DNA of 64,000 nucleotides. Source: Sphaerochaetaceae bacterium. Lineage in GTDB: Bacteria > Spirochaetota > Spirochaetia > Sphaerochaetales > Sphaerochaetaceae. Both the position numbers and the translations under genes were made by a program. Below the pieces are notes generated by a model that worked only from the letters and a program-made list of their open reading frames with translations, made no database searches and was not told the DNA's origin. Positions 3,534 through 60,899 of the stretch are shown here, piece by piece (position 1 is the first letter of the stretch; each line of letters opens with the position of its first letter). The stretch lies in assembly GCA_024405015.1 (NCBI GenBank), contig JAKSPE010000005.1, positions 36,149 to 100,148 on the forward strand, read 5' to 3'.

Positions 3534-3535
3534 GA

Positions 3536-13885: not shown

Positions 13886-13899
13886 CAGAAAACAAAAAA

Positions 13900-15832: not shown

Positions 15833-15838
15833 GTGTTC

Positions 15839-16081: not shown

Positions 16082-16096
16082 AGTTTCCCTTTTTTA

Positions 16097-16160: not shown

Positions 16161-16212
16161 ACATAATAAAAAACTTGTAAGTTAATGCACTTACTTACAG
16201 AAGGGGAGAAAA

Positions 16213-16590: not shown

Positions 16591-16618
16591 TTTAGAAATT
16601 GTTCAAGGAGCAATGAAA

Positions 16619-17188: not shown

Positions 17189-17597
17189 ATAATTTTGTTT
17201 TCTAGGCTGAGAGGCTGCAACGTATGTTGTGGCCTCTTCTTTTATCTGGATCATACCCAGATAAAAAAACAGATGCTTGGGAGTGAAGAAGGTTCCCAAG
17301 CATCTCACACTAAAAGGAGGTATGAAAAAAACTGTTGCTCTGCCTAATTAATAGCAAGTACCGTGCCAACTTCTGTTTTTGGCCTGAAAAAATTTCAAAA
17401 CAGCAGTTTTTCATCCTACTTTTGCCTAAAATTGTCGTAACTCATTGTCTTTGGCCTTCTTCTGGGGTGTGCAGAAAATGCACAGATGTGAAGAAAATGA
17501 AATGGGTGTGAAATTTTTGCACACTGGTATGGTCTCCTGTCTTGACAGATTGGAATAAAAGGCAATTTGCAATATGCTAAGGACAACGGAGAATCCT

Positions 17598-18245
17598 ATG
17601 GACAAAGCATGTGTCATTTTCGATATGGATGGAACATTGATCGATTCAATGCCTTATTGGAACATCAGTGTGGAAGAGGTTGTCGCCAAGCGTGGAGTCA
17701 CCAAGATCCCAAAGGCATTGCGTGACAAGACTGTCGCAATGACCGTCATCGATTCCTGCAACCTGTTCATCAAGGAATTCGGTCTGGATTGCGATGCCCA
17801 ACAGATGATGGACGACGTCTACAAGATGATGGAGTACCACTATGTCCATGACGTACCGCTTAAGCCAGGTGTCCCGGAGTATCTTGAGGCTTTGAAGAAA
17901 AAGGGCATCAAGATGTGTACCGCCTCTGCCACCCGTGAGGACCAGCAGGCAATTGCGCTCAAGCGATTTGGAATCTATGACTATTTTATCGACACGGTCT
18001 CTGCCGAGCGAGTTGGTGTGAGTAAGAGCGATGGCCCTGACATTTACGACTATTGTGCAAAGCTCATGGGCTGTGACCGAACAAACGCTGCCGTCTTTGA
18101 GGATTCCTATGTTGCCGCAAAAACCGCAAAGGATGCCGGCTATTATGTTGTTGGCTGCTGTGATGAGGTCTCACAGGATACTTGGAAAGACCTGATTTCC
18201 GTGACCGACGAGCACTTTGAGGACTGGAGAACGCTTAATGCCTAG
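17598..18245 (+). CDS. HAD family hydrolase (beta-phosphoglucomutase/phosphatase-like)
   Basis: DMDGTLIDS motif I and a later FEDS..... motif. Start at MDKACVIFDMDG. Confidence 0.8.
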   Translation: MDKACVIFDMDGTLIDSMPYWNISVEEVVAKRGVTKIPKALRDKTVAMTVIDSCNLFIKEFGLDCDAQQMMDDVYKMMEYHYVHDVPLKPGVPEYLEALKKKGIKMCTASATREDQQAIALKRFGIYDYFIDTVSAERVGVSKSDGPDIYDYCAKLMGCDRTNAAVFEDSYVAAKTAKDAGYYVVGCCDEVSQDTWKDLISVTDEHFEDWRTLNA

Positions 18246-46244: not shown

Positions 46245-46507
46245 GATGGGCTTCCCCCTTTGTAAAAAAATGAATTTGTTTTTTTTGTGGTGACCTTGTT
46301 ATAAGGTATTTGAGGGGTAGGGACAATAGTTTTTAGCCGGATTTTTGACACTATTTGAAGTTTAGTTTAAATGATGACGGTTTGTACTTGTGACGCTTTT
46401 TGCATGCCAAAGGGTGTATTGCGACAATAAGCATCCAAAGGTGCGTTTTAATATAATTTGATTCACATTATATATAAAAATACATGCGCTGAAATGGCGC
46501 CACTTCG

Positions 46508-46560
46508 TTGACTAGAAACATTAAAAGATAGATACTAACTGTGTTTAGGTCTGACCTAAA
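46508..46560 (+). promoter_or_regulatory. candidate promoter plus 17-bp palindrome upstream of the six-module gene
   Basis: TTGACT at 46508-46513, a 17-nt spacer, GATACT at 46531-46536, then the perfect palindrome TTTAGGTC-T-GACCTAAA at 46544-46560. Confidence 0.35.
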
Positions 46561-46598
46561 TATCATTTTGGCTACTATTTTTTTAGGGAGATAAGAAA

Positions 46599-49550
46599 AT
46601 GAAGAAATTCATCGTTTTCGCTCTTGTCCTCGCTCTCGCAATGACATCCGTTTTCGCAATGGGTCTTGCTGAAGATATGAAGGCACAGGAAGCTGCAGCA
46701 GCTGCTGTCGTTGAGACTCCAGTTGTTGAAACAGTTGCTCCAGTTGTTGCTGGTCCTGCAACTTACACATTCGGAATGGGAATCACATTCGATGATGAAC
46801 AGTCCAACGACACAACAGCAGCTTACGATGCAGTTGTCGCAGCAGTCGTTCTCGACGCTGAGGGAAGAATCGTTGCAGTTCAGATCGATGACGCTCAGAA
46901 CAAGATGACAAAGGACGATGTCGACCCAGAGAAGACATTCAAGTCCAAGTATGAGCTCCAGTATGACTACAACATGGTCAAGTTCTCTGAGGCAACAAAC
47001 GAGTGGTTCGAGCAGGCAGCTGCATTCGAAGACTACTGCGCTGGCAAGACTGCTGCAGAGATTGCTGATCTCGCAACAAGAGTCAGAACAGAGGCTGAGC
47101 CACATCCAGGCTACGTCGTCACAGCTGACGAGGAGCTTTTCGCATCCTGCTCCATGTCCATCACAAGCTTCAAGGAAGCAGTCGTGAAGGCATGTGCAGA
47201 CACAAAGGCAAAGACATTCACAACAGATGCTCCATTCTGTGTCGGACTCAAGGTCAGCACAACAGCTGAGGAGTCAACAGATGAAGTCATCAAGATGTAC
47301 GCAAACTTCGGTGCAGTCGTCGTAGACGAGAACGGAGTCATCCTTGCTGCTCTCCTCGATGCAATCCAGCCACAGTTCAAGGTTGAGGATGATGCATTCA
47401 CATTCAAGGGCACAAAGAAGGAGCTCGAGTTCGGCTACAACATGGTCAAGTTCTCCGAGGCAACAAACGAGTGGTTCGAGCAGGCAGCAGCATTCGAGGA
47501 TTACTGTGCAGGTAAGACAGGTGCTGAGGTTGCAACACTCGCAACAAGAGTCAGAACAGCAGACGAGCCACATCCAGGCTACGTCGTCACAGCTGACGAG
47601 GAGCTTTTCGCTTCCTGTTCCATCCAGATTGTTGAGTTCAAGTCCGTCCTCGCACAGGCAGCCGGTGCTGAGCCAGTTGTTGAAGCAGTTGTTGAGGGAC
47701 CTGCAACATATACATTCGGAATGGGTATCACATTCAGCGATGAGCAGTCCAACGAGACAACAGCAGCATACGACGCAGTCACAGCAGCAGTCGTCCTCGA
47801 CGCTGAGGGAAGAATCGTTGCAGTTCAGATCGATGACGCTCAGAACAAGATGACAAAGGACGATGTCGACCCAGAGAAGACATTCAAGTCCAAGTATGAG
47901 CTCCAGTATGACTACAACATGGTCAAGTTCTCTGAGGCAACAAACGAGTGGTTCGAGCAGGCAGCTGCATTCGAAGACTACTGCGCTGGCAAGACTGCTG
48001 CAGAGATTGCTGATCTCGCAACAAGAGTCAGAACAGAGGCTGAGCCACATCCAGGCTACGTCGTCACAGCTGACGAGGAGCTTTTCGCATCCTGCTCCAT
48101 GTCCATCACAAGCTTCAAGGAAGCAGTCGTCAAGGCTTGCAACGATACAAAGGCAAAGACATTCACAACAGATGCACCATTCACAGTCGGACTCAAGATC
48201 AGCACAACAGCTGAGGAGTCAACAGACGAGGTCATCAAGATGTACGCCAACTTCGGTGCAGTCGTTGTAGACGAGAACGGCGTCATCCTTGCAGCACTTC
48301 TTGATGCCATCCAGCCACAGTACAAGGTCGAGGAAGAGGCATTCACATTCAAGGGAACAAAGAAGGAACTTGAGTTCGGTTACAACATGGTCAAGTTCTC
48401 CGAGGCTACAAACGAGTGGTTCGAGCAGGCAGCAGCATTCGAGGATTACTGTGTAGGTAAGACAGGTGCTGAGGTTGCAACACTCGCAACAAGAGTCAGA
48501 ACAGCTGACGAGCCACATCCAGGCTACGTCGTCACAGCTGATGAGGAGCTTTTCGCTTCCTGTTCCATCCAGATCGTTGAGTTCAAGTCTGTTCTCGCAC
48601 AGGCTGCTGGCGCTGAGGCTGTTGCTCCAGCTACATACACTCTCGGTATGGGAATCACATTCGATGATGAGCAGTCCAACGAGACAACAGCTGCTTACGA
48701 TGCAGTTGTCGCAACAGTCGTCCTCGATGCTGAGGGCAAGATCGTTGCAGTCCAGATCGATGACGCTCAGAACAAGATGACAAAGGACGATGTCGACCCA
48801 GAGAAGACATTCAAGTCCAAGTATGAGCTCCAGTATGACTACAACATGGTCAAGTTCTCTGAGGCAACAAACGAGTGGTTCGAGCAGGCAGCTGCATTCG
48901 AAGACTACTGCGCTGGCAAGACTGCTGCAGAGATTGCTGATCTCGCAACAAGAGTCAGAACAGAGGCTGAGCCACATCCAGGCTACGTCGTCACAGCTGA
49001 CGAGGAGCTTTTCGCATCCTGCTCCATGTCCATCACAAGCTTCAAGGAAGCAGTCGTCAAGGCTTGCAACGATACAAAGGCAAAGACATTCACAACAGAT
49101 GCTCCATTCTGCCTCGGTGTTGCAGTCAATACAAAGGCTGACGAGTCTACAGATGAAGTCATCAAGATGTATGCTGAGTTCGGTGCTGCAGTTGTTTCCG
49201 CTGATGGAACAGTTCTCGCTTGTCTGACAGATGCTATCCAGCCACAGTTCAAGGTTGAAGATGATGCATTCACATTCAAGGGCACAAAGAAGGAACTCGA
49301 GTTTGACTACAACATGGTCAAGTTCTCTGAGGCAACAAACGAGTGGTTCGAGCAGGCAGCTGCATTCGAAGACTACTGCGCTGGCAAGACTGCTGCAGAG
49401 ATTGCTGATCTCGCAACAAGAGTCAGAACAGAGGCTGAGCCACATCCAGGCTACGTCGTCACAGCTGATGAGGAGCTTTTCGCTTCATGCTCCATGCAGA
49501 TCACAGGCATGAAGGCTGTCATCTCCAAGGCTGCTAACAACGCCAACTAA
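46599..49550 (+). CDS. secreted six-module repeat protein (FMN_bind-like modules with A-S-C-S in place of S-G-A-T)
   Basis: GGGAG SD. Sec signal peptide (…MTSVFA/MG) with no lipobox. Six modules of 152-159 aa make up the rest of the protein. The gene ends 8 nt before apbE. Confidence 0.85.
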   Translation: MKKFIVFALVLALAMTSVFAMGLAEDMKAQEAAAAAVVETPVVETVAPVVAGPATYTFGMGITFDDEQSNDTTAAYDAVVAAVVLDAEGRIVAVQIDDAQNKMTKDDVDPEKTFKSKYELQYDYNMVKFSEATNEWFEQAAAFEDYCAGKTAAEIADLATRVRTEAEPHPGYVVTADEELFASCSMSITSFKEAVVKACADTKAKTFTTDAPFCVGLKVSTTAEESTDEVIKMYANFGAVVVDENGVILAALLDAIQPQFKVEDDAFTFKGTKKELEFGYNMVKFSEATNEWFEQAAAFEDYCAGKTGAEVATLATRVRTADEPHPGYVVTADEELFASCSIQIVEFKSVLAQAAGAEPVVEAVVEGPATYTFGMGITFSDEQSNETTAAYDAVTAAVVLDAEGRIVAVQIDDAQNKMTKDDVDPEKTFKSKYELQYDYNMVKFSEATNEWFEQAAAFEDYCAGKTAAEIADLATRVRTEAEPHPGYVVTADEELFASCSMSITSFKEAVVKACNDTKAKTFTTDAPFTVGLKISTTAEESTDEVIKMYANFGAVVVDENGVILAALLDAIQPQYKVEEEAFTFKGTKKELEFGYNMVKFSEATNEWFEQAAAFEDYCVGKTGAEVATLATRVRTADEPHPGYVVTADEELFASCSIQIVEFKSVLAQAAGAEAVAPATYTLGMGITFDDEQSNETTAAYDAVVATVVLDAEGKIVAVQIDDAQNKMTKDDVDPEKTFKSKYELQYDYNMVKFSEATNEWFEQAAAFEDYCAGKTAAEIADLATRVRTEAEPHPGYVVTADEELFASCSMSITSFKEAVVKACNDTKAKTFTTDAPFCLGVAVNTKADESTDEVIKMYAEFGAAVVSADGTVLACLTDAIQPQFKVEDDAFTFKGTKKELEFDYNMVKFSEATNEWFEQAAAFEDYCAGKTAAEIADLATRVRTEAEPHPGYVVTADEELFASCSMQITGMKAVISKAANNAN
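46752..49547 (+). repeat. in-frame tandem repeat: three super-units of about 930-945 bp, each with an A and a B half (6 modules)
   Basis: Module boundaries are A1 46752-47219, B1 47220-47696, A2 47697-48164, B2 48165-48623, A3 48624-49091 and B3 49092-49547. Blocks of more than 250 nt (for example from 46918, 47863 and 48790) are essentially identical at the nucleotide level. Confidence 0.9.
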
Positions 49551-49558
49551 TTGATGAT

Positions 49559-50746
49559 ATGCAAAGAAAGACAATAGTGTCGGGCATCGCCATTGTGGTG
49601 ATGCTCGGCATCCTTTCTATTACAGGTTGCACAAAGGCTGCCTCTGAAAAACCTTCAGAGGCAGTTTCTGCGTCTAAAGAACAGATTGTCGTGGCCGTTT
49701 CCGAGCCTGTGACATCTGCGGAAAAGACACAGCCTGTTGTGGAGAAGGAACCTGAAAAGCCTGTAAAGGAGACTGCCCCAGTGCAGAACCCAAAGGGCCG
49801 AGGTAAGGTCTATTACAATCTCTTTGATACTGTTTCCTATGTCTACAGCTATGCCGGAGACAGCGACGACAGATTCCTCGGAATCTGCGACCAGGTCTAC
49901 GACATTCTGAACGACTATCACATGATGTTTGACATCTACTATGAGTATTCTGGCGTCAACAATCTCAAAACCATCAACCTCAACGCTGGTGGAGAACCGA
50001 TTGCTGTGGACGCAAGGCTCATAAAGTTCCTTCAGTATGCAAAGGAACTTTATGAACTGACAGGCGGCGAGATGGACGTCATGATGGGTTCTGTTCTCTC
50101 TATCTGGCACGAGGCTCGAAACGCATCTGTCCCATATGTACCTTCCACGGAGAAACTGGAAGAGGCAAACAGATTCGTTGGATTCGACTACCTCGAGATA
50201 GATGAAGAGAATGGAACTGTAAGAATTACAGATTCCAGAGCATCACTTGATGTTGGTGCACTCGGAAAGGGCTATGCGACGGAGATGGCTGCAAGGTACC
50301 TTGAGAAAATCGGTGCTGAGCACTATGTCCTGAACATAGGAGGCAACATCCGCATCGTCGGCACAAAGGTCGATGGAAGTGGATGGGTGACAGGAATCCG
50401 AAATCCGAAGGACCCTGATAACTCATTCTCACTGAAGGTCAATATCAGTGATTGTGCATGTGTCACAAGTGGTAGCTATGAGCGATATTTCACCGTCAAT
50501 GGCGTGAAGTACCCTCATATTATCGATAAGGATACCCTGCAGCCTGCCCGTTATTATGAATCACTGACCGTCATCACAAAGGACAGCGGTCTTGCGGATG
50601 CCTTGTCTACCGCACTGTACTGCATGCCTTATGAGGATGGCCTGAAGCTTGTGGAAAGTCTGAAAGACGTGGGGTGCGTCTGGATCTTCTCAAACGGAAG
50701 TATCCGATATACTCCAAATCTGAAAGACGTCGTCATTAATGTCTGA
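49559..50746 (+). CDS. apbE: FAD:protein FMN transferase (ApbE/Ftp) lipoprotein
   Basis: Lipobox LSITGC, a long Pro/Glu/Lys linker, then the ApbE motifs DVGALGKGYA, TSGSYERYF, HIIDK.T and ADALSTAL. Confidence 0.9.
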   Translation: MQRKTIVSGIAIVVMLGILSITGCTKAASEKPSEAVSASKEQIVVAVSEPVTSAEKTQPVVEKEPEKPVKETAPVQNPKGRGKVYYNLFDTVSYVYSYAGDSDDRFLGICDQVYDILNDYHMMFDIYYEYSGVNNLKTINLNAGGEPIAVDARLIKFLQYAKELYELTGGEMDVMMGSVLSIWHEARNASVPYVPSTEKLEEANRFVGFDYLEIDEENGTVRITDSRASLDVGALGKGYATEMAARYLEKIGAEHYVLNIGGNIRIVGTKVDGSGWVTGIRNPKDPDNSFSLKVNISDCACVTSGSYERYFTVNGVKYPHIIDKDTLQPARYYESLTVITKDSGLADALSTALYCMPYEDGLKLVESLKDVGCVWIFSNGSIRYTPNLKDVVINV

Positions 50747-50783
50747 TCATTAAAAAGGAAAACAATATAAGGAGGCATGTTAA

Positions 50784-52076
50784 GTGCTTTTCAGTAAGAA
50801 GATTTCAGCAGTACATGTACCGCATTGCAAGTCCACACAGGACAAGCATTCCGTACGCATTGCACCACCTGAGTCTGTAACAATTCCTATGTCAATGCAC
50901 TCTGGTGCACCAGCAGTTCCAGTTGTAGCTGTCGGTGACCACGTTTACATTGGCCAGCTGATCGCAAAAGAGGGAGAGGGCAGAGTCTCTTCTCCAATCC
51001 ATGCATCAATCTCCGGAACTGTTTCAGCTGTTGGTGAGAAGTCCATCTCCATCAAGTCTGATGGAAAGATGGAGATCGATCCTCAGATGAAGGCTCCAAA
51101 GCTCGAGACTTTGGATGACTTCCTGGATGGTTGCCGCAAGAGCGGTATCGTCGGTCTCGGTGGAGCAGCATATCCTCTTCACGGTAAGTGGGAAGCTGTC
51201 AGAAAGAACAAGATTGAGACTGTTCTCATCAACGGTGCTGAGTGTGAGCCATATTGTACAGCTGACAACAGAACCATGGTTGAGGACTATGATCATATCA
51301 AGCAGGGTATCGAGATTCTCAAGAGATTCGTAGGTGCAAAGGAGTATGTCATCGGTATCGAGGCAAACAAGCCAGAAGCCATCAAGCTCCTTACAGACCT
51401 CTTCAAGGATGACAGCTCTGTCATCGTCAAGTCCCTTGAGTCCGTCTACCCACAGGGTGCAAAGCAGGTTCTTCTTTGGAACGCAACCGGAAAGGTTGTC
51501 GCTGCTGGTCAGAGACTTGCATCCCTCGGTGTCATCATCACAAACGTCACAACACTCGCAAAGATGGCTCTCTACTTCGAAACCGGTATGCCACTTGTTG
51601 ACAAGTGTGTTTCTGTTGACGGTTCTGCCATCAAGGAGCCAAAGAACATCATCGCTCCAATCGGAACCAGCTACGGTTACTGCATTGAGCAGTGTGGTGG
51701 TTTCAGCTGTGAGCCTGGTCGTGTCATTGAGGGTGGTCCTATGATGGGTCGCACAATCGCATCTCTCGATGAGCCTGTCATCAAGGCTACCAACGGTCTT
51801 GTTGCCATGAGTCAGGCCGATTCCGTCATCCTTGAGCCAACTGCATGTCTGCATTGCGGAAAGTGCGTTGAGGCATGTCCACTGGATCTCAACCCAGTTG
51901 CATACTCCGATGCTCTTGATATCGATGATGAGGACAAGAGAGAGCTGATTCTCAAGAAGGAAGATGTCCCACAGTGCATGGAGTGCGGATGCTGCGCATA
52001 CGTATGTCCAGCTCACAGACCTCTCGTCGCAAACAACAGGGCTGCTAAGAAGTTCCTGAGAGGAAGGAGAAAGTAA
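50784..52076 (+). CDS. rnfC: Rnf complex subunit C
   Basis: AAGGAGG lies 8 nt upstream of GTG 50784. GLGGA..P, NGAECEPY and two 4Fe-4S motifs (CLHCGKCVEACP, CMECGCCAYVCP). Confidence 0.9.
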   Translation: MLFSKKISAVHVPHCKSTQDKHSVRIAPPESVTIPMSMHSGAPAVPVVAVGDHVYIGQLIAKEGEGRVSSPIHASISGTVSAVGEKSISIKSDGKMEIDPQMKAPKLETLDDFLDGCRKSGIVGLGGAAYPLHGKWEAVRKNKIETVLINGAECEPYCTADNRTMVEDYDHIKQGIEILKRFVGAKEYVIGIEANKPEAIKLLTDLFKDDSSVIVKSLESVYPQGAKQVLLWNATGKVVAAGQRLASLGVIITNVTTLAKMALYFETGMPLVDKCVSVDGSAIKEPKNIIAPIGTSYGYCIEQCGGFSCEPGRVIEGGPMMGRTIASLDEPVIKATNGLVAMSQADSVILEPTACLHCGKCVEACPLDLNPVAYSDALDIDDEDKRELILKKEDVPQCMECGCCAYVCPAHRPLVANNRAAKKFLRGRRK

Positions 52077-53017
52077 TGGCAAACAACTATAATCTCATTA
52101 CAGTATCATCACCTCATTTCCACAACGGTTCATCCGGAAGAAGAATCATGCTCGATGTCATCATCGCTCTGATTCCTGCTGCAATCGCTGCTGTGGTGAT
52201 CTTTGGTATGAAGTCCCTTGCTCTGATGGCAACCTGTATCATTGCTGCAATCGCCGCAGAGTCCCTGTTTGACGTCATCGTCAAGAAAAAGAATACCGTT
52301 GGTGACCTTTCAGCTATCGTTACAGGTCTTCTTCTTGCACTGAACCTCGGTACAGAAGTCGCCCTCTGGGAAGCTGCAGTCGGTAGCGTATTCGCAATCG
52401 TATTCGTCAAGTGCATCTTCGGTGGCCTTGGAAAGAACTTCGCAAACCCAGCAATCACAGGTCGTGTCTTCATGATCATCGCCTTCGGTTCCGTCACATC
52501 ATTCGTCAATCCGAAGTGTGTAGAGCTCGTCTCATCTGCTACACCTCTTGCAAACCTTGCACAGGGTGCAATGGATCAGCTCCCAACTGTTGGACAGATG
52601 CTTCTGGGTCTCCATGGTGGTACAATCGGTGAGACATGTATCATCGCTCTTGTCCTCGGATGGGTCTATCTCTCAGTCAGAAAGGTCATCAAGTGGTACG
52701 TCCCAGCTGCATTCATCGCAACAGTCTTTGTTCTGTTCCTGGTCTTCACTGGATCTCCAGTGGTCGCATTCTATGAGATTCTCTCCGGTGGTCTTTTCCT
52801 CGGTGCAATCTTCATGGCAACCGACTACGTCTCAACTCCTATCACAGTCAAGGGTAAGGTCGTCTTCTGCATCTGCTGTGGTATCATCACATTCATCATT
52901 CGTAAGTTCTGTGCTCTTCCAGAAGGTGTCTCATTTTCCATCCTGATCATGAACATCCTCACTCCATGGGTAGAGAAGCTTACTCACAATGTTCCACTTG
53001 ACAGGAGGGGAAAGTAA
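52076..53017 (+). CDS. rnfD: Rnf complex subunit D
   Basis: Polytopic NqrB/RnfD family protein. The SSATPL segment corresponds to the known (S/G)GAT flavinylation site. Confidence 0.9.
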   Translation: MANNYNLITVSSPHFHNGSSGRRIMLDVIIALIPAAIAAVVIFGMKSLALMATCIIAAIAAESLFDVIVKKKNTVGDLSAIVTGLLLALNLGTEVALWEAAVGSVFAIVFVKCIFGGLGKNFANPAITGRVFMIIAFGSVTSFVNPKCVELVSSATPLANLAQGAMDQLPTVGQMLLGLHGGTIGETCIIALVLGWVYLSVRKVIKWYVPAAFIATVFVLFLVFTGSPVVAFYEILSGGLFLGAIFMATDYVSTPITVKGKVVFCICCGIITFIIRKFCALPEGVSFSILIMNILTPWVEKLTHNVPLDRRGK

Positions 53018-54966
53018 TGGCAACCAAGAAAGCTACACAGTTAATTCTCCTCATTGCAACAGTCATCGTCTTCGCAGGCATCCTTGTTGCACTGAACACA
53101 GTAACCGGCCCAAAGATCCTCGCAAACCAGAACAGTGCCGTATTCGAGCCACTGTTCGCGGTCATGCCTGAGGCAAAGGGATTCACAGCTCTTGATCTTG
53201 CTGCAGCTGATACAGTCAAGGCTGCATGGAAGGAGACAAGCGGCAAGGGTTACGTCATCCAGCTCGCTACCAACAAGGGTTACACACACGAGGATATCGA
53301 TATCACAGTTGCTATCGCAGCTGACGGAAAGATCTCTGCTGTAAACCTTGAGTCCTATCCAGAGACAAAGGACTTCGGTAAGGAAACCTACCCAGCAACC
53401 TACATCGGACAGGATTCCACTCTTGCAAATGTCCAGCTCGTAGCTGGTGTCACATTCTCCTCCAAGGCATTCAAGGGTGCCATCGAGGATGCATTTGCAC
53501 TTCTCATTGACAACGGCCTTATCGGTGCTGGTGTCAAGGAGGCAAGCCAGGTCATTACAGAGATGATTCCAGTCGTGAACGCAGACATGTGTTCCGAGAC
53601 AGGCATGCTCCAGGCTAAGGAAGTTGAGGTCAAGGGTGCCAAGAAGGCTTGGGCTTCCGACAGCGGAAAGTCTGTTGCATTCTGGCTCGAGAACGGTGGT
53701 GACTTCCTTGCAATCGTTGACAACACTGGAAAGGTCACAGCATATGACCTCGATGGTAATGACGTCACATTCGCAAAGAACCCAGTCGTCACACTTGCTG
53801 AAGCAGCTTATGACGAGTACCAGAGCGTCCTCAATGCCAAGGATATTGAAGAGATCATGTCTCTCATCCCTGGTGCTGTCGGATTCAGAAAGCTCGCCGT
53901 TGAGGCTCCAGACACCGTCAAGAGCGTTTGGGCAGAGACAAGCGGTCTCGGTTATGTCGTCAGAAGCGCAACAAACAAGGGCTTCACACACGAGTACATC
54001 AACCTCTCTGTTGCATTCACAGCAGATGGTAAGATCTCCAACGTCGTTCTCGAGTCCTACCCAGAGACAAGAGACTTCGGTGCTGATTATCCAGCAACTT
54101 ACATCGGTCAGGATTCCACACTCTCTGGTGTCCAGATCATCGCTGGTGTCACATACTCATCCACAGCATTCAAGGGTGCAGTCAATGATGCATTCACAGT
54201 TCTCACCTCAAACGGTCTCGTTGTTGAGGCAGTCAAGGAGCCAAGCCAGGTCATCGATGAGATGATTCCAGAGAAGGCTACTGCACTGATCAACCCACAG
54301 GGCATCTTCCAGGGTGAAGAGATTGAGGTTAAGGCTGACGGCGTCGTCAAGGCTTGGAGAAACCCAGCCAAGAGCGTTGCCGCTTACTGGATGAACAATG
54401 CTGACGGTGACTTCCTTGTTCTTGCAAACGCATATGGCTGTGCAACCGTCTATGACCTTAAGGGTAACGATGTCACAGGCTCTCAGAAGGCTCTTTCTGA
54501 TGCAGCTCTTGCTAACAGCACATCTGTTCTTGCCAAGGCAACATCCAAGGAGATTGCAAAGGTCACAAAGCTTCTCCCAGCAGGTTCTACTGCTGTTGAG
54601 GTCGCTTGCGACATCTACACATCTGTTGCTGACATCGTCAAGGCCGAGACAGCGGACGGCGTCTACTATGGTTTCCTCTGCCACACTTATGGCTTCGGTA
54701 ACCACGAGATGACCTACTACGTTGCAATCGATCCAAACGGAAAGATCTCTGGTCTTAACACAAGTACACTCATCATCGAAGCTGAGTATTACCCACAGGC
54801 ATCCGTCAAGAAGGCTGACTATGTCGCAGCCCTTACAGGTGTCACAGCAGACTGGACAGGAGAGGAGGCACTGATTGCCAATGCAACTCTCACAACACAG
54901 TCCACACAGACTGCTCTCAACGAGGCATTCGCAGCCTTCGAGCTTCTCACAGGAGGTGCAAACTAA
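53017..54966 (+). CDS. rnfG: Rnf complex subunit G, expanded (649 aa, three FMN_bind-like domains)
   Basis: N-terminal TM helix and the usual position between rnfD and rnfE. The FMN_bind-like C-terminal segments are VAGVTFSSKAFKGAIEDAF (Thr146), IAGVTYSSTAFKGAVNDAF (Thr379) and IANATLTTQSTQTALNEAF (Thr624). Confidence 0.8.
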   Translation: MATKKATQLILLIATVIVFAGILVALNTVTGPKILANQNSAVFEPLFAVMPEAKGFTALDLAAADTVKAAWKETSGKGYVIQLATNKGYTHEDIDITVAIAADGKISAVNLESYPETKDFGKETYPATYIGQDSTLANVQLVAGVTFSSKAFKGAIEDAFALLIDNGLIGAGVKEASQVITEMIPVVNADMCSETGMLQAKEVEVKGAKKAWASDSGKSVAFWLENGGDFLAIVDNTGKVTAYDLDGNDVTFAKNPVVTLAEAAYDEYQSVLNAKDIEEIMSLIPGAVGFRKLAVEAPDTVKSVWAETSGLGYVVRSATNKGFTHEYINLSVAFTADGKISNVVLESYPETRDFGADYPATYIGQDSTLSGVQIIAGVTYSSTAFKGAVNDAFTVLTSNGLVVEAVKEPSQVIDEMIPEKATALINPQGIFQGEEIEVKADGVVKAWRNPAKSVAAYWMNNADGDFLVLANAYGCATVYDLKGNDVTGSQKALSDAALANSTSVLAKATSKEIAKVTKLLPAGSTAVEVACDIYTSVADIVKAETADGVYYGFLCHTYGFGNHEMTYYVAIDPNGKISGLNTSTLIIEAEYYPQASVKKADYVAALTGVTADWTGEEALIANATLTTQSTQTALNEAFAAFELLTGGAN

Positions 54967-55544
54967 TGATGGAAAAGGATATTATCAGCAAGAATCCTGT
55001 AATGGTTCTTTTTCTTGGAGCCTGTCCTGCTCTGGCTGCAACAACCACAGCAACAGCTTCCGTTGGAATGGCAGTTTCCGTTTGTCTGATTCTGGTTCTC
55101 TCATCAGTTCTCATGTCCCTCATGAGAAAGGGTGTTGGTGATGCCATCAGACTTCCTCTTGCAATCGTCATCAGCGCAGGATTTGCTTCCATCGCACAGA
55201 TGGTCATGGCAGCTTACCTTCCTAAGGTCTATGCAATGCTTGGTGTTTATCTTGCAATCGTTGCAGTTAACGCAATGGTCGTGACACACCAGCAGAACAC
55301 AGCTTCCCAGGAAGGCTTCGGAGCTTCTCTGAAGCAGGCTGTCATCACAGGAATCGAGTTCTGCGCTCTCGTGATTGTCATGGGAATCGTCAGAGAGATT
55401 CTCGGCAACGGAACATGTTTCGGTGCAAAGGTCCCATTCTTCGCAAACCACACAATCGCAGTTTTCGGTAAGGCAGGCGGTGCATTCATCGTATTCGCAA
55501 TTCTCCTTGCAGTTGCCGGATGCTTCAGAAAGGAGGCAAAGTGA
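54966..55544 (+). CDS. rnfE: Rnf complex subunit E
   Basis: NPV.V..LG.CPALA.TT is the RnfE/NqrD signature. 192 aa. Confidence 0.9.
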   Translation: MMEKDIISKNPVMVLFLGACPALAATTTATASVGMAVSVCLILVLSSVLMSLMRKGVGDAIRLPLAIVISAGFASIAQMVMAAYLPKVYAMLGVYLAIVAVNAMVVTHQQNTASQEGFGASLKQAVITGIEFCALVIVMGIVREILGNGTCFGAKVPFFANHTIAVFGKAGGAFIVFAILLAVAGCFRKEAK

Positions 55545-56095
55545 TGTCAGCTAAGGAAGTTATCGCAATCATGTTTGCCTGCATTCTCGCAAACAACTAC
55601 GTATTCCAGAATTTCTTCGGTGTTGAGGCTGTCGCTCTCGATTCTGAGAAGGGTATCAAGTGCATGCTCTTCAACGGACTCACAGTCACAGCAGTCCTCA
55701 TCGTCTCCACACTCATCACATGGCCAATCAACGCCATGCTCGCCAGTGCAAGCTACCTTCAGACACTTGTCTTCGCAATCGTCACAACAGCTGTTGTCTA
55801 CGTTGCAGACTTCGTCGCCAAGAAGGTTTGCAAAGAGAACAAGTGTTCTGTCCTTTCCATCGCCATCAACAGCGTCGTCATGGGTGCATGCCTTGTAAAC
55901 GCTGCTAACGGTTACGGATTTGGAACTTCTGTTCTTGCATCTGTCGGTGTCGGACTCGGATACCTTCTGGCAACATTCGTTGTCGCTGGTGTCAGAGAAA
56001 GAGTCAATGAGAAGTTCATTCCAAAGGCATGGAGAGGCGCTCCAATCCTTGCTGCTGAGATGGCTATCATCGCTCTTACACTGTTCGCTCTCTGA
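55544..56095 (+). CDS. rnfA: Rnf complex subunit A
   Basis: ILANNYVFQNFFG... is an RnfA/NqrE-like six-TM protein. Its start overlaps the rnfE stop (ATGA). Confidence 0.85.
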   Translation: MSAKEVIAIMFACILANNYVFQNFFGVEAVALDSEKGIKCMLFNGLTVTAVLIVSTLITWPINAMLASASYLQTLVFAIVTTAVVYVADFVAKKVCKENKCSVLSIAINSVVMGACLVNAANGYGFGTSVLASVGVGLGYLLATFVVAGVRERVNEKFIPKAWRGAPILAAEMAIIALTLFAL

Positions 56096-56469
56096 TGAAG
56101 AGTACTAGCAAAAAGGCACGGATCCTGAGGGATCTGTGCCTGATTTTTGCATTGGTCATCCTTGGTTTGGCTTCTCTTGTGATCATGCGAAGCCGAGGAA
56201 CCGAGGGTGCCTATGCGATTGTGCAGGTCAATGGCATTGAGATTTCACGCCATTCCTTGCATATGGAAGGAACAATTCCAGTAAACGGTGGTACCAATCT
56301 CCTGGAGATCAAGGGAAACCGTGCAAGACTTGTTGATGCAGATTGTCCGGACAAGCTCTGTGTGAGACAGGGTTGGATCCAGTACACCGGACAGTGCATC
56401 ACCTGCCTCCCGAACAAACTTACTGTTACGATTTCGGGTGGCGACGATTCAGTTGAACTGATTCTGTAG
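56095..56469 (+). CDS. NusG domain II-containing protein (DUF1312)
   Basis: N-terminal TM helix, then ...VDADCPDKLCVRQGWI...CITCLPNKL, typical of DUF1312/NusG_II. Confidence 0.8.
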   Translation: MKSTSKKARILRDLCLIFALVILGLASLVIMRSRGTEGAYAIVQVNGIEISRHSLHMEGTIPVNGGTNLLEIKGNRARLVDADCPDKLCVRQGWIQYTGQCITCLPNKLTVTISGGDDSVELIL

Positions 56470-56477
56470 AGGAATAG

Positions 56478-57008
56478 ATGGAAACGAGAAAGATCGCACA
56501 GATGGGACTTCTGATTGCCCTGGCAATGATCCTGTCCTATGTGGAAAGCAGAATACCAGCCTTTGTGGCCATACCTGGAATCAAGATGGGTCTGGCAAAC
56601 ATTGTCGTGGTTTTCGCTTTGTACCGACTGGGGTTCAAAGAGGCTCTTGTCATCACAGCGCTTCGAGTCGTTTTGGCATCTCTGCTTTTCGGATCGGTTC
56701 TTTCCATGGCCTATTCGGCCTCTGGAGCACTGCTTTCACTTGTCGGAATGACACTTCTGAAGAAAAGCAGACTTTTCGGTACGGTTGCGGTCAGCGTAAC
56801 AGGTGGAGTGCTTCATAATCTTGGACAGATTGCCACAGCTTGTCTCATCCTTGAGACCAATGCAATTGCATATTACATACCGTTTCTCATCATCAGCGGT
56901 GTTGTCACAGGAATTGTAATCGGCTTGGCTGCAGCTATAGTGATCAACAGACTCGATCCTGACAGAAAGGTCAAGGACGACGAGGAAGATGATGAAGAAG
57001 GAGTATGA
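56478..57008 (+). CDS. Gx transporter family protein (Hpre_diP_synt_I; ECF S-component-like clan)
   Basis: RKIAQMGLLIALAMILSYVE...IPG.K.GLANIV.......G is typical of PF07456. It has an acidic C-terminal tail. Confidence 0.8.
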   Translation: METRKIAQMGLLIALAMILSYVESRIPAFVAIPGIKMGLANIVVVFALYRLGFKEALVITALRVVLASLLFGSVLSMAYSASGALLSLVGMTLLKKSRLFGTVAVSVTGGVLHNLGQIATACLILETNAIAYYIPFLIISGVVTGIVIGLAAAIVINRLDPDRKVKDDEEDDEEGV

Positions 57009-57460
57009 AAATGGCTGAAGATAAGTTTTCACCAACCGGAATGAACGGAAAAGACAAGAACTTCTCACCAAAGTTCTTTGAGACAGAAGGCAAGATGGGT
57101 GCTTTCCAGAAGGGAATGCACTGGGTAACCTCTGTTCTTGAGACAATCCTTGCAATTGTGCTTGTTCTTGGTATTCTGTTCTCATTCGTACAGATGCCTG
57201 AAAAGCTTCTGGACATCATCAGCGGTGGTTCCAGCACATTGCTTGAGCTTGTCGAGTACATTGCTCTCATCATCATCGCCATCGAGCTCATCCATGTGAT
57301 CATGGTGCAGAACCTCGATTCCGTCATTGAGATTCTCATGATGGCATTTACTCGAGAACTTGTCATCAAGGAGTGGGCTATGTGGGAGCTTCTGCTTGGT
57401 GTTCTCGTCATTGCCGGACTTTTCGCCATCAAGAAATATCTGCTCAGCAAGGAAGATTGA
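57005..57460 (+). CDS. PsiE-like (phosphate-starvation-inducible E family) membrane protein
   Basis: Four-helix membrane protein. LLELVEYIALIIIAIELIHVI resembles the PsiE family. It overlaps the upstream stop (ATGA). Confidence 0.6.
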   Translation: MKMAEDKFSPTGMNGKDKNFSPKFFETEGKMGAFQKGMHWVTSVLETILAIVLVLGILFSFVQMPEKLLDIISGGSSTLLELVEYIALIIIAIELIHVIMVQNLDSVIEILMMAFTRELVIKEWAMWELLLGVLVIAGLFAIKKYLLSKED

Positions 57461-57468
57461 CATCTGCA

Positions 57469-58326
57469 ATGCCACTGATTGAAGTCGACAATGTAACATT
57501 CTCATACCCTGCCAAAGATGGTGGGGTCAATGCACTGACCGGTCTGAACCTGAAGGTTGAGGCCGGTTCGTTTGTTACTGTCCTCGGCTCAAACGGAAGC
57601 GGAAAGTCCACGTTGGGAAAGCTTCTGAATGCTCTTCTTGTCCCACAGAGCGGACGCGTGGTTGTCGATGGTCTTTGCTCTTCTGACAAGGCCAATGTAT
57701 ATGAGATCCGAAAAAGGGTGGGAATCGTATTCCAGAATCCGGACAACCAGATTGTCGCAGATACAGTGGAAGACGACGTTGCTTTCGGGCCTGAGAACAT
57801 TGGTCTTGCACTTGATCAGATGAAGGTTCGCATCGCTGACAGCCTTGCATCTACTGGCATCTCTGACCTTGCTTTGACTAAGCCGGAAAAGCTTTCCGGA
57901 GGCCAGAAACAGCGAGTTGCCATCGCAGGTGTCATGGCGCTGGAGCCGAAGTGCATCGTTTTGGATGAGTCCACATCCATGCTCGATCCAAAGGGTAGGA
58001 CAGAGGTCCTAGGTGCCATCCAGAAACTTCGAATGGAGAAGGGTATCGCTGTGATTCTCATTACCCATTACATGGAGGAGGCCGTGGATGCCGACTATGT
58101 CTATGTTCTGGATAAGGGAAGTGTGGCGTTGGAAGGAACGCCTTCTGAGGTGTTTTCCGATGCAGATACTCTGGAAGCCCTTGGCCTTGAACTTCCTCCT
58201 GCTGTTAAAGTATGGCAGATGCTTCGTGCAAAAGGGGTTGTCGTTTCCGTCCCTGTTCTGACCGAAGAGGACCTGGTCTCTGCGCTTTCCAAGCTGATGC
58301 GTCAGAAAGGGGGTGCCTCATGCTGA
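57469..58326 (+). CDS. ecfA1: ECF transporter ATPase component
   Basis: GSNGSGKSTL, LSGGQKQRVAIAG and LDESTSMLD motifs. The N-terminus (LIEVDNVTFSY) is EcfA1-like. Confidence 0.85.
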   Translation: MPLIEVDNVTFSYPAKDGGVNALTGLNLKVEAGSFVTVLGSNGSGKSTLGKLLNALLVPQSGRVVVDGLCSSDKANVYEIRKRVGIVFQNPDNQIVADTVEDDVAFGPENIGLALDQMKVRIADSLASTGISDLALTKPEKLSGGQKQRVAIAGVMALEPKCIVLDESTSMLDPKGRTEVLGAIQKLRMEKGIAVILITHYMEEAVDADYVYVLDKGSVALEGTPSEVFSDADTLEALGLELPPAVKVWQMLRAKGVVVSVPVLTEEDLVSALSKLMRQKGGASC

Positions 58327-59078
58327 AGGATGTGACCCTCGGACGCTACTATCCAATCGAATCTCCACTTCATGAGCTGGATCCTAGAACCAAGATGGTT
58401 GCGATTCTCATTTACATTGTGACCACCTTTCTTGCCTCTACACCAATTACCTGTGCACTGACATTTCTTGTTCTTTGTCTTCTGATCCACCTTTCCAAAG
58501 TGCCGGTACGATACATGGTCAAAGGTCTCCGGGCGGTAGTCATCATTGTTGTGATTACTGATCTGATCAACATTTTCTTTGTGGAGAATGGCCTTTGGAA
58601 GGCTTTCATTGTGACGCTTCGAATGATTGAGATTGTCCTTGGTTCGAACATCCTTTCCCTTACCACTAAGCCTAAAACCATGGCAGCCGGAATCGAGAAA
58701 GGCTTGGGCTGGATGAAGAGACTCCATGTTCCAGTGCACGATTTTGCCACAATGATCTCCATTGCCTTCCGTTTCCTTCCGATTCTGACGCAGGAAGCCG
58801 ACAAGGTCATGGAAGCCCAGAAGGCACGTGGTGCTGATTTTGAAAGCGGAAATCTGCTGCGTCGAGCAAAGGCTCTGATGCCGATCCTGATTCCTCTGTT
58901 TGTGTCCGCATTCCGAAGAGCAGATGAACTTGCGCTTGCTATGGATAGCCGTCTCTATGGTTCTGGAGAGCCTACCAGTTTGCACCCTCTGAAGTACAAC
59001 ACCTCCGATGGCGTTTCCTATCTTCTTGCTTTTGCCTACCTGGCACTGGTGATTGTTCTCAAGGTGGTGCATGTATGA
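58320..59078 (+). CDS. ecfT: ECF transporter transmembrane (T) component
   Basis: LGRYYP..SPLH.LDPR.K and A...ARG are EcfT/CbiQ motifs. It overlaps both flanking ATPase genes. Confidence 0.85.
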   Translation: MLKDVTLGRYYPIESPLHELDPRTKMVAILIYIVTTFLASTPITCALTFLVLCLLIHLSKVPVRYMVKGLRAVVIIVVITDLINIFFVENGLWKAFIVTLRMIEIVLGSNILSLTTKPKTMAAGIEKGLGWMKRLHVPVHDFATMISIAFRFLPILTQEADKVMEAQKARGADFESGNLLRRAKALMPILIPLFVSAFRRADELALAMDSRLYGSGEPTSLHPLKYNTSDGVSYLLAFAYLALVIVLKVVHV

Positions 59079-59890
59079 TTGAAATCAGAGATCTTTGCTA
59101 CCGTTACGATGTAGGTACCCCTTTTGAGAAGGTCGCTGTGCAGAATGTGTCATTCACCATTGAGGATGGAGCATTTCTTGGTATCGCTGGAAGCACAGGA
59201 AGCGGAAAGTCCACACTCATCAAACATCTGAATGGTCTACTTAGGCCGACATCCGGTACGGTTCTGCTCAATGGAGAGGATATCTTCGCATCGACCTATG
59301 ATCGAATCGCCCTTCGTGGAAAAGTGGGTCTTGTGTTTCAGTATCCGGAGTACCAGCTCTTTGAGGAGACTGTCCTTCGCGATGTGATGTTTGGTCCTAA
59401 GAACATGGGACTTTCCGACAAGGATGCAAAGCAGAGAGCAAAGGATGCCCTTTCGCTTGTCGGTCTTGGCAAAGAGTATTACAAAAGATCTCCATTTGCC
59501 CTCTCTGGAGGTGAAAAGCGCAGAGTCGCAATTGCTGGAATGCTTGCCATGCAGCCGCAGGTTCTGGTTCTTGATGAACCTGCAGCTGGTCTTGATCCGA
59601 GAATGCACAACGAAATCTTCAGCCTTCTGAAGCGTCTGAACGAAGAGGGTACCACCATCGTTGTCGTGTCTCACAGCATGGAAGACATTGCCCAGTATTG
59701 CACCACAATGGCTCTTATGGACAACGGAAGGCTTGTGGACTTTGGAAAACCTGCAGAGGTGTTCGCCAAAGACCATGTGTCCAAGCCTTTTGCTGCAAGA
59801 GTTGCCCAGATGCTTGGTGACTTCGGTTGTGATCTTTCCGGCGTCTGCACCATTGAGGATCTTGTGGAGCGAATCTGCAAAGAGATGTGA
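59075..59890 (+). CDS. ecfA2: ECF transporter ATPase component
   Basis: Y..GTPFEK.A...VSF.IE.G.F.GI.G.TGSGKSTLI.HLNGLL.PTSG is EcfA2-like, with LSGGEKRRVAIAG. Confidence 0.85.
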   Translation: MIEIRDLCYRYDVGTPFEKVAVQNVSFTIEDGAFLGIAGSTGSGKSTLIKHLNGLLRPTSGTVLLNGEDIFASTYDRIALRGKVGLVFQYPEYQLFEETVLRDVMFGPKNMGLSDKDAKQRAKDALSLVGLGKEYYKRSPFALSGGEKRRVAIAGMLAMQPQVLVLDEPAAGLDPRMHNEIFSLLKRLNEEGTTIVVVSHSMEDIAQYCTTMALMDNGRLVDFGKPAEVFAKDHVSKPFAARVAQMLGDFGCDLSGVCTIEDLVERICKEM

Positions 59891-59903: not shown

Positions 59904-60698
59904 TCAAAGGAAATGCTCTTTGATGAACTGCATCAGGTATTCTTCGTTCAACGGATGTTTTCGTGATTCAAAGGTCATTACCAGGTTTTTTCCGGAAATA
60001 ATTCCCTTTTTTGCGTAGAGCTCAATTTTCCTAAGAAAACTTTTGTCGACGTAATCTTCGTCATCCAACCTTCCAAAGTGCTCATAGACGTATTCCTTTC
60101 CTGTTCGAACATTCAAAACAAGGAAATCTGGATACAATCGTTCGTCTTCAACAGTGATTGGGTATTCAAATATGTATGGGATTCTGAGATCCTCGAATAT
60201 GTTGACAATGATTTCTTCTGTCTTTGATCTTACTCTAAGTCCGTTTCTTGCAACTATGACTCTTTCGTCAAAGGCGAAACCAAGCTTTCTGTAAGGAGGC
60301 CGTGTCTTCCACTTTTCGATGTCTGTGGCGGAGATGGATGTCTTCGTCACATATTCTCTGCGAATAGCAGATAAGTTGTCATAGATATCTTCAGGATCTT
60401 GGCAACGGCTCAATAGCTTAATGCACTTTTGAAGTTCAATGACAGTCTTCTTTGAACAATTGATGACAGAATCATCGTAATCCTGTTGAGCAAGAGCTTT
60501 GATGGTGTTGATTTTAGATTTGGGGAGGTATGTGCCATTTGTTTTGGCAGGATCATTTTTCCAATAGAATCTTACAATTCCTTTTTCGTTTCTGACACTC
60601 AAAGACCCTGGAATTCGACTTGTCTGCTTCTTGTTGATGAATTCAGACAGCTTCTCACAATACTTTTCGATTATTTCAACAATGTATGATGTTCTCAT
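59904..60698 (-). CDS. PD-(D/E)xK superfamily nuclease-like protein (TnsA-N/Vsr-like core), orphan
   Basis: RSKTEEII....L.IPY..EYP......LYPDFLVLN....KEYVYEHFG has an E...PD...E.. arrangement like TnsA_N or DUF559-type endonucleases. The start is set at MRTSY (60696-60698). Confidence 0.55.
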   Translation of the reverse strand: MRTSYIVEIIEKYCEKLSEFINKKQTSRIPGSLSVRNEKGIVRFYWKNDPAKTNGTYLPKSKINTIKALAQQDYDDSVINCSKKTVIELQKCIKLLSRCQDPEDIYDNLSAIRREYVTKTSISATDIEKWKTRPPYRKLGFAFDERVIVARNGLRVRSKTEEIIVNIFEDLRIPYIFEYPITVEDERLYPDFLVLNVRTGKEYVYEHFGRLDDEDYVDKSFLRKIELYAKKGIISGKNLVMTFESRKHPLNEEYLMQFIKEHFL

Positions 60699-60713
60699 GC
60701 CAACTATATACCA
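60696..60713 (-). promoter_or_regulatory. extended -10 promoter abutting the start codon (candidate leaderless mRNA)
   Basis: The minus strand reads TGgTATATA, then 6 nt (GTTGGC), then ATG. No SD is present. Confidence 0.4.
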
Positions 60714-60899
60714 GCAAACTGTCAATAATATTTTTTGTGACAGAACTTCGTGTTCTATAGATTTTCAAAAAATAAAAGAAAGCATAGTGAATGTACTATG
60801 ATTATGAAAAAAACTGGTTGAAACATGGAACAAATGAATCTGGTATCGATGAAAGTTCTATGCATTTTGGAAGAAATTGGATTTCAATAGTGAAAACAC

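Follow-up and report, generated by a model that had tools for sequence, protein, structure and literature searches.

A Sphaerochaetaceae gene block combines an RnfB-less Rnf that has lost RnfA/E cluster ligands with a probable multi-flavinylated secreted protein

In the Rnf complex, electrons pass from RnfB to a [2Fe-2S] cluster of RnfA and RnfE, then to the flavin mononucleotide (FMN) of RnfG, to the FMN and riboflavin of RnfD and, through RnfC, to NAD+ (PMC12174285). The membrane cofactors of the Rnf/Nqr family, including the RnfA/E cluster and its four cysteine ligands, are described as strictly conserved, and this cluster is regarded as the element that links the electron flow with the ion gradient (PMC12174285). 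Here we analyse a stretch of 64,000 nucleotides from a Sphaerochaetaceae bacterium (assembly GCA_024405015.1, contig JAKSPE010000005.1, positions 36,149 to 100,148 of the forward strand), referred to as the window and used for all positions given below except those within a named related locus. In this window, a block of 13 genes at 46599–59890 combines rnfC, rnfD, rnfG, rnfE and rnfA with genes for a secreted six-module protein (named X in this work), the FMN transferase ApbE, and a predicted exporter of flavin adenine dinucleotide (FAD).

Several elements of this block have described counterparts. The sole established protein-modifying role of ApbE is the flavinylation of Thr or Ser residues. 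Its canonical motif is D-x-x-[ST]-G-A-[ST], of which the last residue is modified; an Ala-to-Val change at position −1 leaves about 50% of flavinylation, and an Asp-to-Ala change has little effect (PMC12052999). Extracytosolic proteins with several ApbE sites have been described, as have multi-FMN-domain RnfG proteins in RNF clusters, for which a second, outward electron path was proposed (Meheust et al. 2021, eLife, PMC8238504). A further domain, FMN-bind2, is about 160 amino acids (aa) long, has no InterPro entry and occurs in even copy numbers (2, 4, 6x); in the published model, two domains form a pseudo-symmetric unit that holds two flavin sites. Its type example comes from an Erysipelotrichaceae bacterium and its 6x example from Hujiaoplasma (Huang et al. 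2024, mSystems, PMC11334425). Regarding flavin supply, the S-component-like protein EetB (PF07456) binds FAD and is needed in Listeria for FAD export to the ApbE enzyme FmnB. The eetB gene co-locates with eetA in 3,328 genomes, with apbE in 2,169, with the ATPase genes ECF-A/A' of the energy-coupling factor (ECF) type in 796, with ECF-T in 291, and with Rnf in 572 Clostridia genomes (PMC9973259). A preliminary description of the block had stated that this combination was not described as a unit. This holds for the tight X-ApbE-RnfCDGEA-EetAB unit, since neither such a unit nor a link between FMN-bind2 and Rnf was found in the literature searched. It does not hold for the components, because ApbE-linked multi-flavinylated proteins and RnfGs, FMN-bind2, and EetB/ECF FAD export genes near apbE and Rnf are already published (PMC9973259, PMC8238504, PMC11334425).

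Analysis of the 64-kb window revealed no open reading frame (ORF) resembling RnfB, that is, with an N-terminal transmembrane helix, a C-G-A-C-G region and several [4Fe-4S] motifs, in agreement with the earlier naming of this Rnf as RnfB-less. The absence is matched by changes in the subunits that bind the membrane cluster. Alignment of RnfA with 9eri_A, 7zc6_A and 8ahx_A revealed that both [2Fe-2S] cysteines are replaced, by Glu and Ser, and alignment of RnfE with 9eri_E, 7zc6_E and 8ahx_E placed Ala103 at the second cysteine (N-A for N-C), Cys20 being kept in the sequence LGACP. RnfB was also absent from about 57 related clusters, all of which have lost both RnfA cysteines and the second RnfE cysteine, and most of them the first RnfE cysteine as well. 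On the contrary, the seven clusters in which RnfB is present (L055, L056, L062, L069, L077, L078 and the second cluster of L037) keep the four cysteines, in the sequences GICPF or GICSF and TNCAV of RnfA and G[MT]CPT and VNCII of RnfE. The presence of RnfB and the retention of the cluster cysteines are therefore perfectly correlated across the related loci.

The locus L037, on a contig of an Oscillospiraceae metagenome-assembled genome (MAG), contains both types. A canonical rnf cluster (3235–9000, minus strand), with RnfB, all four RnfA/E cysteines and an apparently fused RnfD-G of 567 aa, lies there back-to-back with an RnfB-less, cysteine-less cluster (10001–18000) that sits behind X-ApbE. 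The occurrence of both types side by side indicates that they are distinct paralogous systems. No report of an Rnf without RnfB and without the RnfA/E cluster ligands was found in the literature searched, and we consider this coupled loss, apparently unreported, to be the main new result of the analysis. It strengthens the idea of outward electron flow put forward in the preliminary description and makes the term 'Rnf pump' used there doubtful, since the cluster associated with Na+ coupling has been lost.

The path connecting RnfC, RnfD and RnfG, the NADH-side half of the complex, bypasses the lost cluster (PMC12174285). In RnfC, the NADH/FMN domain and two [4Fe-4S] motifs are retained; it is the only real ORF in the window with two CxxCxxCxxxC motifs, and both motifs are present in 56 of 56 RnfB-less relatives. 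RnfD carries the canonical flavinylation motif S-S-A-T-P-L, which 51 of the 56 relatives retain. RnfG consists of a transmembrane anchor, a first domain D1 (AGVT), a middle domain, a second domain D2 (AGVT), another middle domain and a C-terminal domain D3 (ANAT). The three outward FMN_bind-like domains previously attributed to this protein were recovered, two of them by Pfam and D3 through a subthreshold Pfam match (E 0.072 over the full model) and hhalign, which matched the C-terminal RnfG domain of a homologue to domain 1 at 99% probability. The Thr of D1 aligns with the flavinylated G-A-T Thr region of the solved RnfG 7zc6_G, and the protein scores 24.9 bits against TIGR01947, below the cut-off of 102. 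In relatives, RnfG has a form of about 415 aa, in which a transmembrane helix is followed by an FMN_bind domain with A-G-V-T, a middle domain and, at the C-terminus, an FMN_bind-like domain with S/T-G-A-T. The RnfG of the window corresponds to this form plus one extra copy of the FMN_bind and middle domains, produced by internal duplication. An identical 649-aa RnfG was assembled independently in the sequencing run SRR26714004, indicating that it is no assembly artefact. A second, independent enlarged RnfG, of 638 aa, was observed in a distant Eubacteriales MAG (L082:14495–16410), in which a regular expression search detected no S/T-G-A-T-type motif.

Protein X is built of six modules of 151–160 aa (about 155 aa) in the pattern A-B-A-B-A-B, and its three A-B units share 86–92% DNA identity, which points to a fairly recent triplication. 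A protein identical to X is recorded in assembly GCA_024500545.1. The signal peptide of X, and the signal peptides or lipoboxes of its homologues, mark these proteins as extracytosolic. An ApbE-type site was recognised in the modules across the family. In about 316–326 modules taken from 150 diverse top-scoring X representatives, the candidate residue was Thr in 274 and Ser in 42, with no exception, preceded by Cys/Val/Ala at −1, Gly/Ser at −2, Ala/Ser/Thr at −3 and Leu at −5, and by Asp/Glu at −6 in about two thirds of the modules. The resulting family motif, [AST]-[GS]-[CVA]-[TS], is ApbE-like, and the RnfG FMN_bind domains of the same clusters vary alike at −1 (A-G-V-T, A-G-C-T, S-G-A-T, S-G-C-T). 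Each X module of the window carries the sequence D-E-E-L-F-A-S-C-S. Furthermore, hhalign aligned the X modules with two RnfG FMN_bind domains collinearly over the whole domain, placing Ser132 of X on the column of the flavinylated RnfG Thr. The site first considered, the Ser after the invariant Ala (D-x-x-x-x-A-S), was rejected, as Gln, Gly or Val takes its place in 14 of 70 A modules and 9 of 70 B modules; the residue two positions further is always Ser or Thr. These sequence patterns suggest that X is probably a multi-flavinylated protein carrying covalent flavins.

X belongs to a large family. A profile search of 1.84 billion cluster representatives gave at least 1,535 clusters at E ≤ 1e-3, and a search with one A-B unit gave more than 1,000 homologues, all annotated as 'hypothetical', most with a lipoprotein signal (lipobox) and nearly all of 330–400 aa, corresponding to two modules. 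Among the 150 top-scoring representatives, six modules were found in the window X and in one other protein, P0129; about a dozen had four modules, one had three, and the rest had two. The AlphaFold (AF2) model of one A-B unit was confident (predicted local distance difference test, pLDDT, 95; predicted template-modelling score, pTM, 0.92), indicating that the two modules pack in a fixed way. Pfam and NCBIfam searches with X and with single modules assigned no family and returned subthreshold matches only (tRNA_synt_1c_R1, RimP and others), which were judged spurious. No match was obtained when the sequence of a single module was searched against the PDB, and the module profile had one match there, 2kzx_A, an uncharacterised nuclear magnetic resonance structure (32 residues, E 2.4e-5). 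This match falls on the helical stretch of X with the highest conservation, Y-N-M-V-K-[YF]-S-x-A-T-x-E-W-[YF]-x-Q-A, at about residues 70–100 of each module (46800–47100 in the window). The common motif may mark a wider family; as a clue to function the match was uninformative and was set aside. Foldseek with the two-module model found nothing at E ≤ 1e-3, the matches being MHC (major histocompatibility complex)-like, porin-like and toxin-like noise. With a single module (module 1, 46758–47207), IscU scaffolds came first, as weak matches (probability 0.99, E 0.02, TM-score 0.40–0.49). IscU carries an H-C-S motif, which the A-S-C-S-[IM] stretch of the X module resembles. An iron-sulfur scaffold role for X was rejected, since the IscU Cys triad is absent and the one conserved Cys gives way to Val or Ala in about 30% of the modules; the likeness seen with the model is consistent with fold resemblance only.

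The membrane genes downstream of rnfA point to flavin export. The NusG_II protein (56095–56469), of a kind that commonly accompanies PF07456 proteins, belongs to PF07009, which we take to be the EetA family. It has a transmembrane anchor and four cysteines in the arrangement C-x4-C ... C-x2-C (CPDKLC ... CITC), a pattern that suggests a metal or disulfide site. The PF07456, CbiQ, TIGR04520 and TIGR04521 genes share the block with apbE, and by analogy with the published system the EetB and ECF genes would form an FAD exporter (PMC9973259). The dedicated flavin transporter postulated in the preliminary description thus agrees with a known export system, except that its ECF tail was restricted to spirochaetes among the relatives. 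The earlier gene identities were otherwise confirmed by Pfam, NCBIfam or module alignment, with the exception of the 'PsiE-like' protein: this 151-aa protein had no match in Pfam at E ≤ 10 nor in NCBIfam at E ≤ 0.01, PsiE included, so that the name has no support from hidden Markov models.

Conservation of the block was studied through its relatives, of which at least 545 were confirmed among about 186,000 species genomes scanned. Synteny was counted in 84 related loci, several of the X-ApbE-only loci lying on truncated contigs. The link between ApbE and the module protein claimed earlier was very strong: X and apbE are adjacent in 83 of the 84 loci, with apbE directly downstream of X, and apbE is likewise the next gene downstream of the second six-module X (P0129, locus L088). 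The genes rnfC, D, E and A are also present in 62 loci, and 52 contain in addition the NusG_II/PF07456 pair, placed after RnfA. The complete 13-gene order was found in 12 loci, all of spirochaete type. Since the same order recurs in dozens of genomes, it is far beyond chance, and the block can be regarded as one conserved unit, as previously proposed. The tail formed by the 151-aa protein and ecfA1-T-A2 lies outside the conserved core, being confined to the clade nearest to the window, whose members mostly bear the labels Sphaerochaeta, Sphaerochaetaceae or Spirochaetaceae. In L011 (731–11660), X-ApbE is followed by NusG_II, PF07456, the 151-aa protein and ecfA1-T-A2 with no rnf genes between, and L013 and L015 are arranged alike. 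This arrangement has the look of the block after a natural deletion and, because the transporter and X-ApbE are kept without Rnf, it links the transporter with flavinylation and not with Rnf.

The hosts carrying the block belong to gut, rumen and spirochaete lineages, and Neglectibacter caecimuris (L081) is a cultured carrier of the system. Several loci (L005, L007, L008, L010, L011, L014, L015, L018, L019) come from MAGs of a single 'cleanbin' project, titled Bacteroidaceae, Lachnospiraceae, Selenomonadaceae, Eggerthellaceae, Muribaculaceae and others. Those of them that are near-complete hold the same 13-gene block as Sphaerochaetaceae MAGs, with an X 64–69% identical to that of the window; these organism names look unreliable, or the contigs mis-binned.

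Altogether, we consider it reasonably probable that the block is a self-contained system for electron export through protein-bound flavins, built on a derived Rnf in which electrons would run from NADH through RnfC, RnfD and RnfG to X. RnfC would oxidise cytoplasmic NADH with its FMN and two [4Fe-4S] clusters, and RnfD, with covalent FMN and riboflavin, would hand the electrons to the outward-facing, three-domain RnfG. From there they would reach the secreted X, whose six modules would act as three two-flavin units, and finally some periplasmic or extracellular acceptor or reductase. The ApbE lipoprotein would attach FMN to RnfD, RnfG and X, the FAD that it needs being exported by EetA/EetB, the 151-aa protein and EcfA1-T-A2, and RnfA and RnfE would probably remain as scaffold. 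With RnfB and the RnfA/E cluster ligands lost, the flow would be one-way instead of following the semicircular ferredoxin:NAD+ path, and canonical ion pumping would be unlikely. The contact between RnfG and X, the covalent flavin on X, and the flow of electrons and its direction are inferences from sequence, as would be any function of X as a long-range 'wire'.

Several observations weigh against this proposal. RnfB absence in the source genome is known for the 64-kb window only, and rnfB could lie elsewhere. The double-domain RnfG and X-ApbE also occur in RnfB-containing clusters, which implies that the outward branch arose before RnfB was lost and that it may be a side path; the order of events suggested by these sequences is that the outward branch was added to a normal Rnf, and the ferredoxin branch was lost later. 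Regarding X itself, its motif in the window (A-S-C-S, with Glu at −6) departs more from the canonical one than the family consensus does, the hhalign probabilities for its match to FMN_bind are low (42% and 29%), Pfam FMN_bind (PF04205) did not match the X modules even at E ≤ 10, and FMN_bind structures were absent from the Foldseek top 50 for the X module. About 19 of the 84 loci, some of them on truncated contigs, contain X-ApbE only, with unrelated neighbours, so that X can evidently, in some cases, do without an Rnf next to it; pyruvate kinase, a glycosidase and leucine-rich repeat proteins are encoded beside X-ApbE in these loci, and no alternative electron-input module was found there. 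As for transcription, spacing and synteny suggest that the 13 genes would be co-transcribed, and a scan of the block for promoters and terminators gave the same counts as shuffled sequences, being uninformative on transcription units.

The X-ApbE-only loci lend some weight to a different view of X, in which it is no electron carrier but an extracytoplasmic lipoprotein that binds flavin or another cofactor and serves its storage, its scavenging or its hand-over between X and the ECF system, with ApbE acting in flavin trafficking, or in which it has an IscU-like metal or thiol function. The transporter and X are kept without Rnf in L011, the best structural match of the single module is IscU, and most modules have a Cys just before the conserved Ser/Thr. 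However, it is this Cys that is exchanged for Val or Ala while the Thr/Ser is invariant, and the cysteine triad of IscU is missing. In addition, the motif and the following helix align with the RnfG flavinylation site, Thr/Ser flavinylation is the only protein modification established for ApbE (PMC12052999), and X most often precedes an Rnf with an enlarged outward RnfG. We regard such a role as unlikely. Somewhat less probable still is a reversed flow, in which X would take up electrons outside the cytoplasm, from reduced flavins, an electrode-like surface or periplasmic dehydrogenases, and NAD+ would be reduced inside the cell. Sequence fixes no direction, and complexes of the Rnf family are reversible (PMC12174285); nevertheless, reduction of NAD+ (about −320 mV) from flavin-level donors needs an energy input, and the RnfA/E cluster thought to couple the complex to the ion gradient is lost. 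The fermentative hosts from gut, rumen and spirochaete lineages would, moreover, typically need sinks for NADH.

The explanation that we consider least probable, and very improbable in itself, is that of an ordinary ferredoxin:NAD+ Rnf pump with RnfB encoded elsewhere, X, ApbE and ECF serving to mature and supply flavins or forming a minor side branch. The replacement of three of the four [2Fe-2S] cysteines in the window, and of at least three in every RnfB-less relative but none in the RnfB-containing ones, argues strongly in the other direction, and RnfB has no route into a complex without the RnfA/E cluster (PMC12174285). The limited view of the source genome leaves room for such an RnfB, five of the six Rnf subunits are encoded and are recognised as Rnf by their scores, and X-ApbE clusters with RnfB exist in the six loci listed above besides L037. 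L037 itself, with a complete canonical Rnf beside an RnfB-less one, shows the two to be distinct paralogues.

If electron export by the RnfB-less complex is the function of the block, a broader proposal can be made, which we advance tentatively and hold with clearly less confidence. The RnfB-less, ligand-less RnfCDGEA would represent a third functional Rnf/Nqr lineage, an NADH:extracytosolic-flavoprotein oxidoreductase that uses neither quinones nor cytochromes. In Clostridia of gut and rumen, in Erysipelotrichia and in Sphaerochaetaceae, this complex and FMN-bind2 lipoproteins would make up a conduit that carries electrons out of the cell by flavins alone; the X with six modules and the RnfG with three domains of the window would be a lengthened version that crosses the spirochaete periplasm. 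If true, many strict fermenters of gut, rumen and spirochaete lineages that have neither quinones nor cytochromes could dump NADH electrons outside through protein-bound flavins alone, which bears on redox balance and on the reduction of extracellular acceptors in such organisms. It would also mean that the Rnf/Nqr scaffold works without the membrane [2Fe-2S] cluster, called strictly conserved and central to ion coupling in reviews, and would offer a natural experiment separating electron transfer from pumping. An X adjoining ApbE, together with Cys-less RnfA/E, provides a genomic rule for finding the system.

The layout of the block is given in Table 1. All 13 co-directional genes described earlier at 46599–59890 are present as plus-strand ORFs in the ORF list of the window. 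With corrected starts, their junctions range from a 7-nt overlap up to a 37-nt gap. The true starts of ecfA1, ecfT and rnfA probably lie later than those of the longest ORFs, at about 57469, 58320 and 55544, respectively; EcfT homologues are 251–257 aa long. In the upstream intergenic region, a sigma-70-like site was detected at 46508–46536, the number of such sites being no higher than in shuffles. A convergent minus-strand ORF of 273 aa (59904–60725) lies 14 nt past ecfA2 and has no Pfam or NCBIfam match. No tRNAs were found in the window, and the remaining window genes checked were housekeeping genes. Positions 12000–18000 have a low GC content (0.40–0.42 vs about 0.49 elsewhere) and may be an acquired island; this stretch contains an AAA_14/DUF4143 ATPase gene (minus strand, 12536–13960). 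At 34173–35588, a 471-aa protein combines a Schlafen AlbA_2 domain with a C-terminal winged-helix domain, a type often annotated as putative transcriptional regulator or ATP-dependent DNA helicase-like protein.

Table 1. Features of the 13-gene block and its upstream region, in window coordinates.
Feature	Position	Strand	Basis or remarks
Upstream intergenic region, presumed promoter region of block	46245..46598	+	354 bp, sole long non-coding gap adjoining block
X, 983 aa, secreted, six modules	46599..49550	+	Signal peptide without lipobox; module alignment
ApbE FAD:protein FMN transferase, lipoprotein (lipobox ITGC)	49559..50746	+	PF02424, E 8.5e-63
RnfC	50784..52076	+	TIGR01945, 373 bits vs cut-off 246; Complex1_51K, RnfC_N, SLBB domains
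RnfD, 313 aa	52076..53017	+	TIGR01946, 260 bits vs cut-off 207; PF03116, E 3.6e-96
Expanded RnfG, 649 aa	53017..54966	+	Two FMN_bind stretches (Pfam) and FMN_bind-like third domain
RnfE	54966..55544	+	PF02508
RnfA	55520..56095 (likely true start 55544)	+	PF02508
NusG_II membrane-anchored protein (EetA position)	56095..56469	+	PF07009, E 8e-28
EetB-type Gx-clan membrane protein	56478..57008	+	PF07456, E 6.5e-40
151-aa membrane protein, 3-4 hydrophobic segments, family unassigned	57005..57460	+	15-homologue alignment, hydropathy
EcfA1 ATPase	57469..58326 (longest ORF from 57373; likely ATG 57469)	+	TIGR04520, 357 bits vs cut-off 315
EcfT	58320..59078 (longest ORF from 58212)	+	PF02361 CbiQ, E 1e-35
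EcfA2 ATPase	59075..59890	+	TIGR04521, 335 bits vs cut-off 330

In comparison with the solved Rnf complexes (7ZC6, 8AHX, 9ERI), the block encodes homologues of RnfC, RnfD, RnfG, RnfE and RnfA, arranged in the customary order C-D-G-E-A. Its RnfC keeps the FMN/NADH domain and both [4Fe-4S] motifs, its RnfD the flavinylation motif, and its RnfG the single transmembrane anchor and a D1 Thr at the flavinylated Thr region of 7zc6_G. It differs from them in the absence of RnfB, in the replacement of both RnfA cysteines and one of the two RnfE cysteines, and in an RnfG of 649 aa with three FMN_bind-like domains, in contrast to about 190–200 aa and one domain; furthermore, it adds a secreted multi-domain partner, ApbE and a flavin exporter. 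In the survey of Meheust et al. (2021), RnfB was the defining feature of RNF, and Pfam FMN_bind, to which X gives no match, served to find the substrates; the loss of RnfA/E ligands is not reported there. Surveys with these definitions would miss the present system. Regarding X, its modules of about 155 aa, the module counts of 2, 4 and 6 (with one of 3), the confident two-domain model and the homologues in Erysipelotrichia fit every property stated for FMN-bind2. X is thus probably FMN-bind2 by description, not by sequence comparison with NTW96865.1 and WP_312031774.1, which were not among the X cluster members looked up. Huang et al. (2024), on the other hand, draw no link to Rnf.

The flavin export genes resemble those of the Listeria system (EetB/FmnA/EcfA/EcfA' with the ApbE enzyme FmnB and PplA) in that PF07456 lies beside a gene at the EetA position, an ECF T component and two ATPases, and in that the transporter is co-located with apbE and a flavinylated extracytosolic protein, for which X is the putative counterpart in the block (PMC9973259). 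In Listeria, however, electrons enter through Ndh2 and demethylmenaquinone, whereas the block has an Rnf-derived complex and no quinone step is evident; moreover, its ECF order is A1-T-A2, preceded by the extra 151-aa membrane protein. Finally, the block shares with Na+-NQR and with the NQR/RNF-like systems a derivation from an Rnf ancestor that lost rnfB and, with the latter, a proposed one-way path from NAD(P)H to an outward FMN domain. In Na+-NQR, NqrF replaced RnfB, the [2Fe-2S] cluster was kept and NqrA lost its cofactors, whereas the RnfC of the block keeps them. In the NQR/RNF-like systems, RnfD is fused to an NqrF-type NAD-binding domain (PF00175), whereas the RnfD of the block is unfused and contains PF03116 only. 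Unlike both, the block keeps RnfA and RnfE without the cluster ligands.

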